This document shows, piece by piece, positions 15,001 to 21,000 of a DNA stretch of 64,000 nucleotides (the stretch's first letter is position 1; every line of letters begins with the position of its first letter). The position numbers are program-made. The stretch lies in the NCBI GenBank assembly GCA_041483195.1, contig JBGPFC010000010.1, positions 39,448 through 103,447 on the forward strand. Reading direction: 5' to 3'. The DNA is from Candidatus Eiseniibacteriota bacterium. Lineage in GTDB: Bacteria; Eisenbacteria; RBG-16-71-46.

Positions 15001-18000
15001 CGCGCCGGTGGGCGCGCGCGCTCACGTCGGCGATGTCGGTGATCTGCATCATCGGGTTGGTGGGCGTCTCGATGAACACCAGCCGGGTCTCGGGCCGGAT
15101 GGCCGCCTCGACCCCCGCGGCATCCGCGGCGGGTACGAACGTGAAACCGAGCCCCAGCCGCTTGAACACGCGTTCGAACAGCCGATAGGTGCCACCGTAC
15201 AGATTGTCGCCGGCGACCACGTGATCGCCCGCCGACAGCGTATGCATCAGCGTCGTGGTCGCCGCCAGCCCCGACGCGAAGCAGAAGCCGTGGCGCCCGC
15301 CCTCGAGCGCGGCCAGGTTGTTCTCGAGCGCGGAGCGCGTGGCGTTGTGGGTGCGCGCGTATTCGAAGCCCTTGTTGCGGCCGAGCGCCTCCTGCGCGTA
15401 AGTCGAGGTCTGATAGATCGGCACCGTGACCGCGCCGGTGGTGGGATCGGGCTCCTGTCCCGCGTGGATCGCCAGCGTGCTGAAGCCCGACCGCGGCCTC
15501 ACCGCCCCTTCTCCGCCCATCACACCCCTCCCGCGATGAAGTGGAGCATGTCGAACCGCGTCAGGATGCCGGTCACCGCGCCGTCCTCGCTCACCAGCAC
15601 CGCCGGGTTGCGGCTCGCGAGCAGGCGCGTGACCTGCGCGACCGGCTCGTCGCTCTTCACGACCGGCAGCGGCTCGCCCATCAGGGACTCGACCGGCTGA
15701 TCGAGCGTCGAGGAATCCGCGAGCACGCGCTTCAGGATCTCGCTGTCGACGAGCGTGCCCACCACCTCGGCTCCGCGCAACACCGGAATCTGCGAGATGT
15801 CGTGCTGCTGGACCAGCGCGAGCGCCCGGCGGAGCGGCTCGCCGACCTGCACCGTGAGCAGCCGCGGCGACTGCCGGCCCTTGATGCCGAGCACGTCGGC
15901 GACCCGCGTCGCGGCGGGATCGAGCAGGTGATTGTCGCGCATCCACTCGTCGCTGTGCACCTTCGTGAGGTAGCGCTCGCCGGTGTCGGGGAGCAGCACC
16001 ACCACCAGCGCGTCGGCCGTCAGATCCTTCGCGACCTGGAGCGCGACCCACACCGCCATCCCCGACGATCCGCCGACGAAGATCGCCTCCTCACGCGCGA
16101 GACGGCGCGCCATGTTGAGCCCGTCGCGGTCGTTGCACGCGACGACCTGGTCGATCACCGAGAAGTCGGTGGCGGTCGGGATGAAGTCCTCGCCGACGCC
16201 CTCGATCTTGTAGGGATGCGCCTCCGCCATCTCGTGCGTCTCGTGATAGTGCTTGAGGATCGACCCCACCGGGTCGGCCCCGATCACGCGCACGCGGGGG
16301 TTCTTCTCCTTGAGATAGCGCCCGGTCCCGGTGATGGTGCCCCCGGTCCCCATGCCGCACACGAAGTGCGTGATCTTCCCAGCGGTCTGCTCCCACAGCT
16401 CGGGGCCGGTGCTGGCGTAATGGGCCTGCGGATTCGCGGGGTTGTGATACTGGTCGGTCAGAAACGCGCCCGGGCGCTCTGCGGCGATGCGCTTCGCGAC
16501 CGAGTAGTACGACTGAGGGGAGTCGGGCGGGACCGCGGTCGGCGAGAGCATCACCTCCGCGCCGAATGCCTTGAGCAGATTGACCTTCTCGCTCGACACC
16601 TTGTCCGGCATGCAGAAGACGGCGCGGTAGCCCTTGATCACCGCCACCATCGCGAGTCCGAGCCCGGTGTTTCCCGATGTGCACTCGACGATGGTTCCCC
16701 CGGGCTTGAGCTTGCCCGCGCGCTCCGCGCTCTCCACCATCGCGAGCCCGATGCGATCCTTGACGCTTCCGCCGGGATTGAAGAACTCGAGCTTCGCGAG
16801 CACCGGGGCCGCGCTCTGCCGCGCGACGCCACCGAGCCGCACCAGCGGCGTGCGCCCGACGGTCTCGAGGATGTTCTCGTGGTAGCGCACACCGTCCAGG
16901 ACGTGACTCACGGGGAACAGACTCCTGTCGAAGATGGGCCTTGCGGATTCGGCTGGCGGCCGGCGCGCCTGTTCGCGGCCGCGTGGGGTGCGGCCAGGCC
17001 GCGCACTCTGGGCCGGACCGGCAGATTAGGCGCGGGGCTTTTCGCGGTCAAGCGGGCGGACTCGGGGTCCGCGGCCGGACGAGGCGGGCGCGCCCGCGGT
17101 GGTGGGGCGCGCCCGGCGCTAGTGGATGATCTTCGACCGCTTCTGGGCGAAGTTCCAGCTCGGATCGTTGTCGCCCTGGTGGCAGGTGACGCACACCTGC
17201 TCTGTGACGGCGCGATGCTCCTTCGTGTAGGCGTCGTGCTGGGTTCCCATGCCGTGGCAACTTTCGCACTGGACGTTGACGAGCGCCGGCGATTCGCTGG
17301 CATTCACGAATCCGCCTGGCTTCTTGTAGCCCACCACGTGGCACGAGACGCAATCGGACGACGTGTCCTTGTGGTTGTCGATCAGCGTCTGCCAGGCACG
17401 CGCGTGGGGCGTCGTCTTCCATTGCTCGGCCTGCTGGGCGTGGCAGCGAGTGCAGACCTCGGCGCCCACGAACTTGTCGGGGCTGTTCTCGAGATCCTTC
17501 TGGGCCTGCTGCACGACCTGTTCCTTCTCGCGCTTGCGCAGTTTCTCGTTCCAACTGTCGTCGAACAGCTTGACCATCTGCGCGATCTCGGGCTTCTCGC
17601 CGACCTCGGGCCCGAGGATGAAGGTCTCGTTGTCGCCGGTCGTCACGTGGCGCTTCGCGTCGAGCGCGAGCACGGTGCGCCCGATGTACTGGCCCTGCTC
17701 GCCGCCGTAGCAAGCGACCGTGGTCTTGATGAGACGGCCCTTCTGGAGCATCGGCGCGTTGCGTCCGACGATCAGCGCGTCGATGCCGTCCACCGCGGTC
17801 ACCAGGTCTTCGCTCTCGACCTTGCCGAGCTGCGAGAGCAGCACGATGACCGTCGCGCCCTTCTTGCGCATCTCGGCCACGGCCGCCTTGGCCGCCGCGA
17901 CCGGATCCTGGACGACGAGCGAGTCGCGGGCCGGGCCGAGGTCCACTTTGTCGCTGATGACTCCCATGATGCCGAGCGTGGCCGTTCCCACCTTCTTGAC

Positions 18001-21000
18001 GACGTAGGGCTGGAGCACGGGCTTCTTCGTCTTCTTGTCCATCAGGTTGACGCACACGACCGGGAGATGGTCGGCCGCGGCGCGCGACTTGATGAACGCG
18101 AGCCCGTAGCGCAGATCACGATCGCCCACGCCCACCGCGTCGGTGCCGAGCACCTTCATCGCGTCCATCAGGAACCAGGCGACGTCCTCGTACTGATCCT
18201 GCTCCGGGAAGTAGCCGCCGTTGTCGACGAGCACCACCTGTCCGTACTGCGCCTTGATGCTGTCCGTGAAGCTGGCCCGCCGGGCCAGTCCGCCCTTGGG
18301 GGTGTGTCAGCCACAGGGACCGGTCTTGCCCTTCACGTCGGTGGTCGAAAGGATGATGACCTTGTCGGGCTCGAGCGTGGAGTGACTGGCCGTCGTGGCG
18401 CCCGAGAGCATGACCCACAACAGGACGGCCATCACGGCGGACGCGAGCAGGCGGGAAGCCAGCGACTTCATGGAGTGCGATCTCCGGTCTCGAGGGTGGC
18501 ATCGCGTCGAAGCGTGGCGCGCGAAAACGCTTGCGATTCTACGGGTCTGGCTCCGGCAACGTCAAGAATATGGGCGTCCGGATTTTGCTAAACCTCGACC
18601 CGATAGCGCCGCAACAGATCCTTCGATGGCACCCGCTTGCGGGAGCCGCCATGGACGACCAGGACGCGGAACCCGTACCGCTCGAGTCCGAAGTGGCGCT
18701 CGATGATCCGGACCAGCCCATCGATCGTCGCGTCGCCGCGGATGGTTCGGCCGCGGCGGCCCTGCCCGTGCGCCCGGGCCAGCCCCGCCTCGTAGCCTTC
18801 CTCGTATGAGCGCTTGAGCAACCGTTGCAGAGTCCGCCAGTGGGTGAGGCGCAGCTTCTTCAGGACCTGTGTCTGGGTCATGACGTGCCCTCCCTGAATA
18901 CTTGGAGCCCGCCGGGACTCTAGCAGACGGCCGCACCGGCCGCTCGGAAACCGGGGAGTCCCCCCGGCGCCGATGAGCCGGCGGTCGGCATCGGGGTCCG
19001 GCCGCGCTCCCGCCCCGCGGGATTGCGAGGTCCGCGCGAGGGTCTTACACTGAGTGGTCCCTTAAGGACCTCCGGACCGCACCGATGCGGGGGCCGGAAG
19101 CACGCCGATCGGACTCCCGGTTCGGGCCGCGAGACGGGAGACGATCGAAGACCGAAGGCCGATCATGGGAGCGAGAGGCGCATGGCGATTCCGGAGCATT
19201 CCGATCGCGGTCCGAGCGGCGATGAAACCCTGCGATTCGCACTTCTGATACTCGTGATCGGGATCGGTCTCGGGATCGCGTACAACGCGCTCGGGCTCGC
19301 GAGCCGGCCCGCCCGGGGCCTGCCGTGGGTCGGGCACGCCACGAGCGTGCAGAGCCTCGAATCGCTGGAGTCGCTCCCGGATGCGACGCCCGCAGCGGCC
19401 TCGACCCGCGCACCGACCACGACGCCCGCGCCGAGCGGCACGGGGGCACAAGCTGCGAAGACGCCTCCGTCGCACCCGGATTCGACAGCGCGGGCGGCGA
19501 CTCCCGCGCGCGGCACCAGGTCCCCGTCCAAGACGCCCGCCGCTCCCCCCCGGCACGCCGCGGTCACCACTCCCGCCCCGATCACGGCGCCGCCCCCCGC
19601 CGCGACGCCGCCCGCCGCGATGCCGCCCGCCGCGCCGGCCACGGCGCCCCGCACCGCCGACCTGCCGGTGATTCCGGACGTGAGCGGTCCGCTCAAGCTG
19701 GAGATCGCGACGCTCCGGCGGCTCTACGACGCCGACGCGGCGCTCATCATCGACGCCCGGGATTCCGAAGACTACAAAGACGGCCACATCGCGGGCGCCA
19801 TCGGCCTCTCTTACAACGACGCCCTCGCCGAACCCGACAGGGTGAAGCGGCTCGATTCGGGCGGGCGCCCGTTCGTGCTCTATTGCAGCGGCGGGGATTG
19901 CGAGCTGTCCATGGATCTCGCGAAGGTGCTGGTCGCCGCCGGCAAGCGGAAGGTTCTGGTGTACGAGGGTGGCTTCCCCGAGTGGCAGGCGGCGGGCAAT
20001 CCGGTCGCCAAGGGCCCGGACCCCGGAGCGCGTCCATGAGCGCCGGCGGAAATTTCCTCACCTCGCGCGCGCTCGTCGGCCTGTGCCGAATCGTGGTCGG
20101 ACTCGTCATGATCGCGGCGGCGCTCGGCAAGATCGGCGACCCCGCGGCGTTCGCATCGCAGATTCATCACTACCGTCTCATCCCGGCGGCCCCCGAGAAC
20201 CTGCTCGCCATCACGCTTCCCTGGATCGAGCTGGTCGCGGGGCTCGCTCTGGTGCTCGGCGTGCGGGCGCGATCGGGAGCATGGCTGGTGGCGGCGATGA
20301 TGGTGGTCTTCACGCTCGCCGTGACCTCCGCGCTCGCGCGCAACCTGAACATCGACTGCGGTTGCTTCGGCACCGCCGACGCCTCGCGGATCGGATGGAC
20401 GAAGCTGCTCGAGAACATCGCCCTGACCGGCGCTGCGGTGGTCGCCTCGCTGCGACCGAGATGATCTCGCCCACGCCGCGCGGCGCAGGCTCGCCCCGCG
20501 CGACGTTCGGGCTCCCCGCCCCGCGCGCATTGCCAGATGCCGGAGGGGGTTCTACTCTGCGGTTCGCGCGAAGGGAGCCCGGAACCGCATGAGCTACGAG
20601 ACCCTCAACGAGACCGAGTGGGACCAGGTCCGTCACATCTGGGAGATGCTCGACGACGGCGAGACCGACCGGGCGCGCATCCAGCTCGACGACCTGATGC
20701 GCAGCCGCCCCGGGCATCCGGATCTCCGCATCGTCGACGCCTCGATCGCGCTCGACGAGGGTGACGCGAAGCGCGCCCACGATGCGCTCGATGGCGCCGA
20801 GCGCTCGGCCGATCCCGCACTCTTCTTCCAGCTGCGCGCGGTCGCGGGGTTTCAACTCGTGCGCTTCGAGGAAGCGCTCGCCGACGCCGAACGCGCGCTC
20901 GCCGTCCAGCCCGAGATGGCCGAGTCGCACGAGCTGCTCGCACGCATCCACGAATTCCTCGGGAACGCCGCGAAGGCGCGCGAGCACGCCCTGGAGGCGG

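Follow-up and report, generated by a model that had tools for sequence, protein, structure and literature searches.

A protein named 'UshA-like protein, CxU' is entered in selenoprotein catalogues (PMC13188914, PMC9312934, and PMC2398784) and has been listed among the prokaryotic selenoproteins since 2008; the catalogue descriptions characterize it as UshA/COG0737-like only, giving neither a function nor a haem domain. The protein encoded in the window (the whole 64,000 nt stretch of DNA analysed) shares with the model NF041198 (UshA_like_PCGU) the P-C-G-U motif, the UshA-like N-domain, and the tetrahaem C-terminal region. In the Eisenbacteria family-f1 clade, the loss of the old metal ligands (DNGG, GDRD, SQLG, and GRNA) has gone further than in NF041198 members scoring 325-370 bits. 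The design belongs to a catalogued, functionally unstudied family of many bacterial phyla, which is presented here as a tetrahaem cytochrome whose nucleotidase fold lost its metal site, and this UshA-like CxU selenoprotein is nearly universal in Eisenbacteria. What was an orphan selenoprotein can thereby be put to a concrete test as a possible new kind of periplasmic enzyme, one passing electrons from thiols or sulfur to cytochromes. The first substrates to try are indicated by the apparent operon with cystathionine beta-synthase and gamma-lyase and by the DsbA-like partners, and Motiliproteus (L079), a cultured host of a Cys form, offers an experimental entry point.

With 5'-nucleotidase, UshA, and CD73 (2z1a, 1ush, and 4h1s), the protein has in common the N-domain fold and the long linker helix after it; however, it lacks the dimetal ligands, the catalytic His-Asp dyad, and the 5_nucleotid_C domain, in whose place the haem domain stands. 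Cytochrome c554 of Nitrosomonas europaea (1bvb/1ft5) matches the C-domain with an E value of 3e-15, the match taking in the first three haem sites, and it too has three conserved distal His for its four CxxCH. In contrast to c554, the haem part is here a domain of a larger protein, scoring 55.1 bits with NF043010 (cut-off 400), and it has no connection with hydroxylamine oxidation. SoxB (TIGR04486; 2wdc and 4uwq) is also a periplasmic 5'-nucleotidase-fold protein in sulfur chemistry, but the profile match of the window protein is weak (55.4 bits vs. a cut-off of 550), and SoxB retains a dimanganese site and a C-domain and is not known to carry a haem. Thiol enzymes wired to cytochromes or respiration include DsbB/VKOR, flavocytochrome c sulfide dehydrogenase, and thioredoxin reductase with its GCUG motif. 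They resemble the logic proposed below in that a dithiol or selenenylsulfide exchanges electrons with a cofactor chain; however, the window protein has no quinone, flavin, or membrane domain and no homology to them, the likeness being one of mechanism only.

Gene structure and family distribution

The gene is located on the minus strand (17119..18471) and, with TGA translated as U, comprises 450 codons plus a stop, with a single recoded codon, U55, at 18309-18307. Full-length homologues align with the product end to end, whereas translation table 11 breaks the same gene into a 54-aa and a 372-aa ORF. The single reading through TGA at codon 55 proposed in the genome-wide survey's note was reproduced, as were its family scores: SoxB TIGR04486 with 3.1e-15, PF13435 with 4.6e-17 at aa 339-407, and NF041198 with 273.3 bits for the whole protein, which is 1.7 bits under the curated cut-off of 275. 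An Eisenbacteria relative (L064) reached 278.3 bits, and members from other phyla 312-370 bits. Residues 1-320 matched model positions 7-269 (142.7 bits) and residues 321-450 matched positions 396-518 (115.9 bits), so that both the UshA-like part and the C-terminal tetrahaem part are covered. The coverage of positions 7-269 of 519 given in the note is therefore that of the best stretch only, the second stretch spanning the haem domain; nor does this domain stand in for the usual C-terminal domain of the family, because the NF041198 model itself includes the haem region. A quick ML tree of 66 rows placed the window protein in a mostly-Sec clade, which also contains Acidobacteriota and Delta-type members passing the cut-off; the deep branches are weakly supported.

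Relatives are encoded in 559 stretches of species-representative genomes, and 53 of the 80 stretches kept have non-Eisenbacteria titles (L072 onward). The check for the haem domain outside Eisenbacteria, which the survey had left undone, found it in many phyla: the Deltaproteobacteria and Acidobacteriota members at 325-370 bits have the same four CxxCH, and Acidobacteriota, Myxococcota, Nitrospirota, Gammaproteobacteria, and other groups share the architecture. Since relatives with the same four CxxCH occur in other phyla, the architecture is not an Eisenbacteria speciality; judged from the sequences, the family is spread across many phyla in Sec and Cys forms. Within Eisenbacteria, all 101 genomes had a match at E<=0.001, and among the matches listed, 95 of the 101 genomes had one that spans at least about 380 residues and contains a single in-frame TGA (94 of 100 without the unpublished G014). 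Genome G042 contains Cys forms only, and G056, G058, G071, G091, and G098 have weaker matches only, outside those listed; the claim that the protein is kept in every Eisenbacteria genome thus holds as near-universality.

Domain organization

A putative Sec-type signal peptide (aa 1-28; 18388..18471, minus strand) was recognized by inspection from K2, R7, a hydrophobic core, and ATTA/S, and a helix at aa 4-23 in the AF2 model (pLDDT 91, pTM 0.83) is consistent with it. The attachment of c-type haem requires export, and cytochrome c assembly genes are present in the genome. The following N-domain (aa 36-290; 17602..18366, minus strand) has a 5'-nucleotidase/calcineurin-like fold with degenerate metal ligands. 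Foldseek ranked CD73 and the Thermus 5'-nucleotidase highest (E 1e-22), in line with the fold assigned by the survey, and the profile search against PDB gave 2.8e-40. A long linker helix (aa 294-326; 17494..17592, minus strand) was seen in the AF2 secondary structure (H294-326).

The canonical metal-binding motifs DxH, GD, GNH(E/D), H, and GHxH are represented in the window protein by D45/K47, G86, D117/R118, Q214, and R237/A239. The dimetal-ligand columns are unconserved across 115 aligned members: His is outside the seven commonest residues in the motif I His column, and the motif III Asn and His columns hold E/W/D and R/K, respectively. The family-wide loss of the metallophosphoesterase ligands is new here. 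Apart from the haem motifs, only four positions are invariant, in 115/115 members (C53, U/C55, G60, and G85), of which C53 and U/C55 are the only ligand-capable ones outside the haem domain; Cys53 and Sec55 are thus the only invariant reactive side chains of the N-domain. The Cys53-Gly54-Sec55 triplet (18307..18315, minus strand) is part of TGPCGUH at aa 50-56, with the P-C-G-U motif placed after the first N-domain strand. This heptapeptide had been taken for a replacement of the first nucleotidase motif; instead, the motif I Asp is retained as D45, its His is K47, and C-G-U is in a loop 6-10 residues further on.

The C-terminal c554-like tetrahaem domain (aa 332-450; 17122..17478, minus strand) contains CxxCH at 17454-17440, 17352-17338, 17268-17254, and 17193-17179, beginning with C340, C374, C402, and C427, which are the four sites counted previously. 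Its earlier assignment is borne out by the agreement of the Pfam, PDB profile, and c554 matches; by Pfam, only cytochrome families match past aa 330, and 5_nucleotid_C was not detected. Four CxxCH are present in 112-114 of the 115 members, and only three distal His are conserved, namely H356 (113/115), H412 (111/115), and H450 (105/115), with no conserved Met among the aligned members. Four haems would, as predicted from this alignment, be served by only three conserved distal His, a feature new here. One member (P0248) has lost both Cys (LEPYGYY) and retained the haem motifs.

Gene neighbourhood

A promoter-like site, TTGACG-18-TAGAAT (18536..18565, minus strand), precedes the ATG by 65 nt and matches the consensus at 10 of 12 positions; no second site of this kind was found in 14000-19200. 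Upstream on the same strand lies a conserved 97-aa ORF (18588..18881), found by tblastn with 59-80% identity in six of eight same-family genomes and having no Pfam or NCBIfam match. The cystathionine beta-synthase (CBS) gene follows 207 nt downstream (15520..16911, minus strand; TIGR01137, 538.1 bits vs. a cut-off of 510; PALP and CBS domains), and its stop is overlapped (TGATG) by the ATG of a gene of the cystathionine gamma-synthase/lyase (CGL) family (14339..15520, minus strand; NF005871, 517.4 bits vs. a cut-off of 513). Terminator-like sites on the minus strand occur only past 14339, that is, none until after CGL. The one-strand order target-CBS-CGL was found in 16 of 40 Eisenbacteria genomes and target-CGL in four more (20/40 in total), across 8 of 16 families with target identity as low as 30%; it is absent from the other eight sampled families, and L075 is the only locus outside Eisenbacteria where it was seen again. 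In Eisenbacteria, the gene seems to come first in an operon whose other members are cystathionine beta-synthase and gamma-lyase, which links it to cysteine/homocysteine/H2S metabolism, although the synteny could reflect inherited gene order rather than function. Among the neighbours named by the survey, the CBS link is real and conserved, whereas rhodanese and MauE/DoxX are kept only within the same genus.

No neighbour common to different phyla was found in the 57 loci L071-L127, where most neighbours are housekeeping genes. DsbA-like neighbours with CxxC were present in six of these loci, starting no more than about 30 nt from the stop in L084, L090, L100, and L126 and located upstream of the gene in L091 and L109; their motifs (CPHC, CHTC, and CGSC) are of the oxidase type. 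In P0236 and P0248, a C-terminal DSBA/GILT domain is fused to the family member. These DsbA-like links and the CBS/CGL cluster are likewise new here. A DsbA-like CxxC protein is probably a partner in a Cys-form lineage. The only DSBA-family match in the genome studied (G000) looks cytoplasmic and has no CxxC; therefore, the DsbA link is inapplicable to this organism.

Proposed function and alternatives

The protein is tentatively interpreted, with a little less than even confidence, as an exported redox enzyme of the UshA-like PCGU family acting as a thiol (sulfur compound):cytochrome c oxidoreductase. In the proposed cycle, a periplasmic substrate of the thiol or sulfide type would reduce the Cys53-Sec55 selenenylsulfide to a thiol/selenol pair, two electrons each time; the four haems would then draw the electrons off singly and hand them on, to soluble cytochromes or to the respiratory chain. 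By analogy with 5'-nucleotidases, whose substrate-binding C-domain folds down on the side of the N-domain that bears the active site, the haem domain may occupy the corresponding place, so that a haem would lie close to Cys-Gly-Sec. Points against this reading are P0248, which keeps the haem motifs without either Cys, the lack of a neighbour shared between phyla, the small number of loci with DsbA-like neighbours, and the absence of the CBS/CGL order from half of the sampled families.

Which way the electrons run was chosen for this reading and does not follow from the results. A reverse flow, considered possible but rather unlikely, would run from low-potential bis-His haems to the Cys53-Sec55 selenenylsulfide and on to a periplasmic disulfide/cystine, polysulfide, tetrathionate, or selenite. 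The anatomical evidence for it is identical to that for the oxidoreductase reading. Thioredoxin reductase passes electrons outward through its C-terminal Gly-Cys-Sec-Gly, which Cys53-Sec55 would resemble; reductive nucleophilic catalysis is the typical role of Sec; and the cysteine-making gene cluster fits cystine or thiol recycling equally well. However, the oxidase-type motifs of the DsbA-like neighbours better fit electrons leaving thiols, as in the preferred direction.

Catalysis centred on a haem is an unlikely alternative to the thiol:cytochrome c oxidoreductase. His/Cys-ligated haems are known from TsdA, SoxA, and DsrJ. One of the four haems (probably haem 2, as in c554) would have no distal ligand from its own domain; Cys53/Sec55 would ligate it or form the distal pocket, possibly with a metal, and a small sulfur or nitrogen oxyanion would be oxidised or reduced, as in TsdA, SoxAX, and MccA. 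The excess of four CxxCH over three conserved distal His with no conserved Met, the position of C53 and U/C55 as sole invariant ligand-capable residues outside the haem domain, and the active-site role of haem 2 in the c554 scaffold and in MccA (bioRxiv 10.1101/641308) favour it, but the open haem of c554 itself needs no outside ligand. A more speculative and still less probable version has Cys-Gly-Sec reaching the haem of the c554 scaffold that lacks a conserved distal ligand and acting as its sixth ligand or immediate partner. The resulting haem-selenolate (haem-thiolate in Cys forms) centre would oxidise thiols or small sulfur compounds directly into the haem wire and, where DsbB/VKOR are scarce, would link periplasmic thiols to the respiratory chain by a soluble path that needs no quinone; in Eisenbacteria, DsbB was found in none and VKOR in 14 of the 101 genomes.

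A remaining phosphoesterase/nucleotidase or SoxB-type thiosulfohydrolase, with haems merely regulating or anchoring, would agree with the resemblance to 5'-nucleotidases and SoxB in fold and profile but is very improbable and already disfavoured by the unconserved ligands of motifs I, III, IV, and V (here K47, G86, D117/R118, Q214, and R237/A239), the missing 5_nucleotid_C domain, and a SoxB score of about one tenth of the cut-off (55 vs. 550 bits). The survey's preference for redox chemistry over nucleotide hydrolysis is supported here, the metal ligands being absent from every one of the 115 aligned members.

Predicted selenocysteine incorporation

A single gene read through one TGA is predicted to encode one exported selenocysteine protein. 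Homologues have Cys at the column of U55, and these Cys forms are continuous reading frames. A SECIS-like hairpin (CUGGCCC-GGC-GGGCCAG; 18272..18288, minus strand) with a stem of 7 bp begins 22 nt past the U of UGA and is indicated by pairing and covariation. In its alignment, 85.1% of the cells are paired vs. 76.4% in shuffles, the observed value being reached in 0 of 500 shuffles; compensatory wobble-wobble covariation was detected at pairs 33-45 and 36-42, and the stem is complete, with all seven pairs, in 32 of 43 Sec forms vs. 0 of 27 Cys forms. The Rfam search of the window gave no family matching the hairpin. The genome encodes SelA (352.7 bits), SelB (552), SelD (348.6), and tRNA-Sec (69.9), all above cut-offs, so that the features expected of a bacterial selenoprotein (UGA aligned with Cys, downstream stem-loop, and SelA/SelB/SelD/tRNA-Sec) were found together. 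That TGA is a true stop, separating a 54-aa peptide from a 372-aa cytochrome starting at GTG 18237, is what table 11 and many database entries with a start after the TGA imply, but it is scarcely credible and already disfavoured by the 54 upstream codons kept in frame in 95 of 101 Eisenbacteria genomes, the continuity of Cys forms across column 55, the hairpin with the full Sec machinery, and the lack in the downstream piece of the signal peptide that haem attachment needs. Three further sediment runs (X4, X5, and X7) yielded contigs that cover positions 18307-18309 without differences, so the TGA is not an assembly slip; a contig of X3, possibly the source sample, covers them identically as well.

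Selenocysteine Reading of the Gene

Under translation table 11, the minus strand contains two open reading frames of 54 aa (18471..18307) and 372 aa (18237..17119). When the TGA is translated as selenocysteine (Sec), both are fused into a protein of 450 residues with U55 (18309-18307) as the sole recoded codon, so that the joined translation bears out the single gene proposed in the genome-wide survey's note. The N-terminus is leader-like, the motif T-G-P-C-G-U-H is present, and the four CxxCH motifs counted in that note were located at C340, C374, C402, and C427. The family scores were likewise reproduced: NCBIfam NF041198 (UshA_like_PCGU) with 273.3 bits (cut-off 275), SoxB with 3.1e-15, and PF13435 with 4.6e-17 at aa 339-407. 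The genome (G000) contains only one full copy. Contigs from sediment sequencing runs (X4, X5, and X7) span the TGA with zero differences, and the codon is therefore not an assembly error; the X3 contig agrees as well, but this run may be the source sample.

The genome encodes SelA (552 bits), SelB (352.7 bits), SelD (348.6 bits), and tRNA-Sec (69.9 bits), all above the cut-offs. The SelD gene (G000:C9:87191-88583) has its own in-frame TGA and directly adjoins tRNA-Sec, and a SelB-family GTPase match lies on the same contig (85787-86527). Column 55 is occupied by Cys (PCGC) in full-length database homologues.

A candidate hairpin, CUGGCCC-GGC-GGGCCAG (18288-18272, minus strand), begins 22 nt past the U of UGA. 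The single-sequence RNA fold 3' of the TGA was not above shuffles (z 0.13), and neither Rfam nor a tRNA scan matched anything in the window. When 45 distinct Sec-form sequences were compared, 85.1% of the cells were paired versus 76.4% in shuffles (reached by 0 of 500), and slid registers paired at only 18-50%. Two pairs, wobble versus wobble positions in the G-L-A-R-R-A codons, covaried (CG 20, GC 12, and others; CG 34 and UA 7). The complete 7-pair hairpin was found in 32 of 43 Sec forms versus 0 of 27 Cys forms, a control that is thin because the LARRA peptide is common to just three Cys forms, each with 6 of 7 pairs. The putative element is convincing solely through this comparison across homologues, not from the single fold. 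The selenoprotein reading is regarded as settled, short of chemistry.

Family Architecture and Distribution

NF041198 matched the first 320 residues with 142.7 bits (model positions 7-269) and the last 130 residues with 115.9 bits (positions 396-518). This second stretch overturns the earlier statement that the match ends at position 269, and with it the view that the haem domain replaces the usual C-terminus, as NF041198 itself spans that region. For members from Motiliproteus and Magnetococcales, the strongest stretch is C-terminal (positions 346-519), and members from Deltaproteobacteria, Acidobacteriota, Latescibacterota, Syntrophaceae, and Nitrospirota scored 312-370 bits. Since both halves of the protein and members from other phyla match the model, a UshA-like domain plus a tetrahaem domain is, on these profile matches, the normal architecture of the family.

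A pattern scan with one genome per species yielded at least 618 stretches, at least 559 of them encoding relatives, of which the top 80 were retained. Exactly four CxxCH motifs occur in the open frame of 76 of these 80; the exceptions are loci L126 (five), L110 (three), L051 (one, truncated by the contig end), and L052 (none). The x-P-C-G-[U/C] motif was found in 77 of the 80, including two (L058 and L097) that look like chance upstream matches. From L072 onward within these best 80 of at least 559 relatives, 53 of 56 titles refer to non-Eisenbacteria phyla, and L079 is a cultured Motiliproteus isolate. The occurrence of the haem domain outside Eisenbacteria had been left unchecked in the survey; it is found in other phyla, so it is not phylum-specific. 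Among 1.84 billion representatives, phmmer matched 10,782 at E<=1e-3, 660 of them at E<=1e-30. The protein-cluster search with the 372-aa part after the TGA retrieved similar clusters in Planctomycetota, Acidobacteriota, and others, which serve as leads only.

The quick ML tree of 66 rows, with weakly supported deep forks, was divided into a clade of 26 rows, all Cys (mostly Gammaproteobacteria and a Nitrospirota/Delta group), and a clade of 40 rows, 36 Sec and 4 Cys (Eisenbacteria, Acidobacteriota, Myxococcota, and others). Three contigs are titled Saccharimonadaceae (L055), Limnocylindrales (L061), and Binatia (L063), yet carry Eisenbacteria-type copies, and the latter two fall within the Eisenbacteria clade with end branches <0.1; these three bins are probably mislabelled or mixed.

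Fold, Metal Site, and Haem Domain

The AF2 model was confident (pLDDT 91, pTM 0.83): its N-domain is beta/alpha and its C-domain helical, and a long helix spans aa 294-326. In Foldseek, the N-domain matched CD73 and 5'-nucleotidases of bacteria (E 1e-22), and the family profile matched 5'-nucleotidases including CD73 at 2.8e-40, SoxB at 6e-25, and c554 at 6.6e-22.

Ligand and motif conservation was counted in a 115-member family alignment, in which the phosphoesterase ligand columns showed no conservation. The motif I Asp is D in 51 and N in 36 members, the motif I His is replaced by K/R/D/N/F/Y/I, the motif III Asn-His by E/W/D and R/K/L, the motif IV His column holds H in 45 and Q in 26, and the motif V His column H in 48, S in 19, and R in 17. 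At these columns the protein from the window has K47, G86, D117/R118, Q214, and R237/A239. The metal site is lost in the family; C53, U/C55, G60, and G85 are present in 115 of 115 members, and the C-G-U/C motif is invariant.

Besides the four CxxCH motifs, the only conserved His residues of the haem domain are H356 (113/115), H412 (111/115), and H450 (105/115), and no conserved Met was found among the 115 members. Cytochrome c554 has the same count of distal His for its four haems, one haem being open, and the three further His of the family match this count. According to a paper on OcwA (bioRxiv 10.1101/641308), haem 2 is the site of catalysis both in MccA and in the scaffold of c554.

Proposed Activity

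The protein would work in the periplasm as an enzyme whose Cys53-Sec55 selenenylsulfide/thiol-selenol couple, presumably close to a haem, trades electrons with the four haems; a substrate of the thiol or sulfide type would supply the electrons. The same Cys/Sec-haem wiring would also serve the reverse electron direction, the nearest rival. Alternatively, catalysis would be haem-centred with Cys/Sec at the open haem, for which the c554-like His count leaves room. Hydrolysis, suggested by the nucleotidase-like fold and opposed by the lost metal site, is far behind, as are two separate genes, the table 11 reading set against the joined translation. The Cys53-Sec55 couple remains our preferred reading. 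In the family representative P0248, which carries a DsbA-like domain as a fusion, neither motif cysteine survives (LEPYGYY) but all four haem sites do, a sequence at odds with a strict need for the CxC pair.

The family is already catalogued, both as NF041198 and in selenoprotein reviews (table rows in PMC13188914 and PMC9312934; table and discussion in PMC2398784); these catalogue passages mention neither haems nor function, and the supplements may hold more. Literature searches found nothing on the combination of nucleotidase, multiheme, and selenocysteine, on Eisenbacteria and selenocysteine, or on a metallophosphoesterase fused to a multiheme cytochrome, and a looser search on Eisenbacteria, cytochrome, and selenoprotein gave nothing relevant among the matches listed. 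By its profile score, the gene is a borderline addition to a known family; the novelty may lie in the family-level reading and the putative Eisenbacteria operon.

Occurrence in Eisenbacteria

Matches (E<=0.001) were found in 101 of 101 Eisenbacteria genomes, including 90 of 90 at least 90% complete. By the listed matches, 95 of 101 have a near-full-length copy containing a single TGA, the unpublished genome G014 among them; G042 had only Cys forms among its listed matches, and G056, G058, G071, G091, and G098 had only weaker matches outside the list. The gene is near-universal in this phylum sample.

Tandem Sec and Cys copies occur in several genomes (e.g., G048:C106:55186-58048, G070:C44, G013:C29, and G095:C19), haem-less N-domain-only paralogues adjoin the main gene in others (e.g., G085:C175 and L172), and some genomes have long forms within open frames of ~930-1090 aa. 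In G000, a weak N-domain-only match (E 3e-8; G000:C22:31829-32659, L130) lies inside a 1198-aa open frame, which may be a long-form relative like the representatives P0139, P0152, and P0239 (1188-1207 aa).

Genomic Context

No gene neighbour general across phyla was found among the 80 loci kept; the largest non-self neighbour cluster (13 of 80 loci) was lineage-specific (LptD). In the Pfam scan, 150 of the 199 neighbour ORFs were covered, drawn from 43 loci. The sole recurring theme outside Eisenbacteria was DsbA-like thioredoxin-fold ORFs (6 of 57 loci), directly downstream in L084, L090, L100, and L126, where they have leaders and CHTC, CGSC, or CPHC as the CxxC motif, and upstream in L091 and L109. 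A DSBA/GILT domain is fused to the C-terminus of two family representatives, and four have an N-terminal DUF1573. The complex prediction for the L100 member and its DsbA-like neighbour scored 0.00, which has no bearing on whether the two bind. Of 101 Eisenbacteria genomes, none gave a DsbB match and 14 gave one to VKOR; neither was found in the L084, L090, and L100 genomes, which may be incomplete, and DsbB is present in those of L126 and L079. No periplasmic DsbA was found in G000, and re-oxidation of DsbA was rejected for this genome, its only DSBA-family match being without CxxC and leader.

In the window, the minus-strand order is a promoter-like site (18565-18536), the selenoprotein gene, a 207-nt gap, a cystathionine beta-synthase (CBS; TIGR01137, 538 bits), and a cystathionine gamma-synthase/lyase enzyme (CGL; NF005871, 517 bits), whose ATG shares bases with the CBS stop codon (TGATG). 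Terminator-like sites occur only after the CGL gene. This gene order on one strand was found in 16 of 40 Eisenbacteria genomes, and four more have the order selenoprotein gene, CGL; together these genomes span 8 of 16 sampled families, with identities of the selenoprotein down to 30%. In L172, CBS lies 1.2 kb downstream, followed by the contig end, and L170 is without downstream sequence. Among the neighbours named in the survey, CBS is thus retained, and the rhodanese and MauE/DoxX genes were rejected as general partners because their conservation is confined to two genomes of the same genus. These two lie divergently (19023-20464, plus strand), with the rhodanese, which is anchored in the membrane and has a Pro/Ala-rich linker, immediately ahead of the MauE/DoxX membrane protein. 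Just upstream of the selenoprotein gene, a 97-aa ORF (18588-18881, minus strand) had no Pfam or NCBIfam match; it is conserved in 6 of 8 same-family genomes (59-80% identity) and therefore probably represents a genuine small gene. Flanking the cluster upstream, a TPR and Zincin_1 metallopeptidase-like protein (20589-21407, plus strand) is kept in all 8 same-family genomes sampled, with 57-76% identity.
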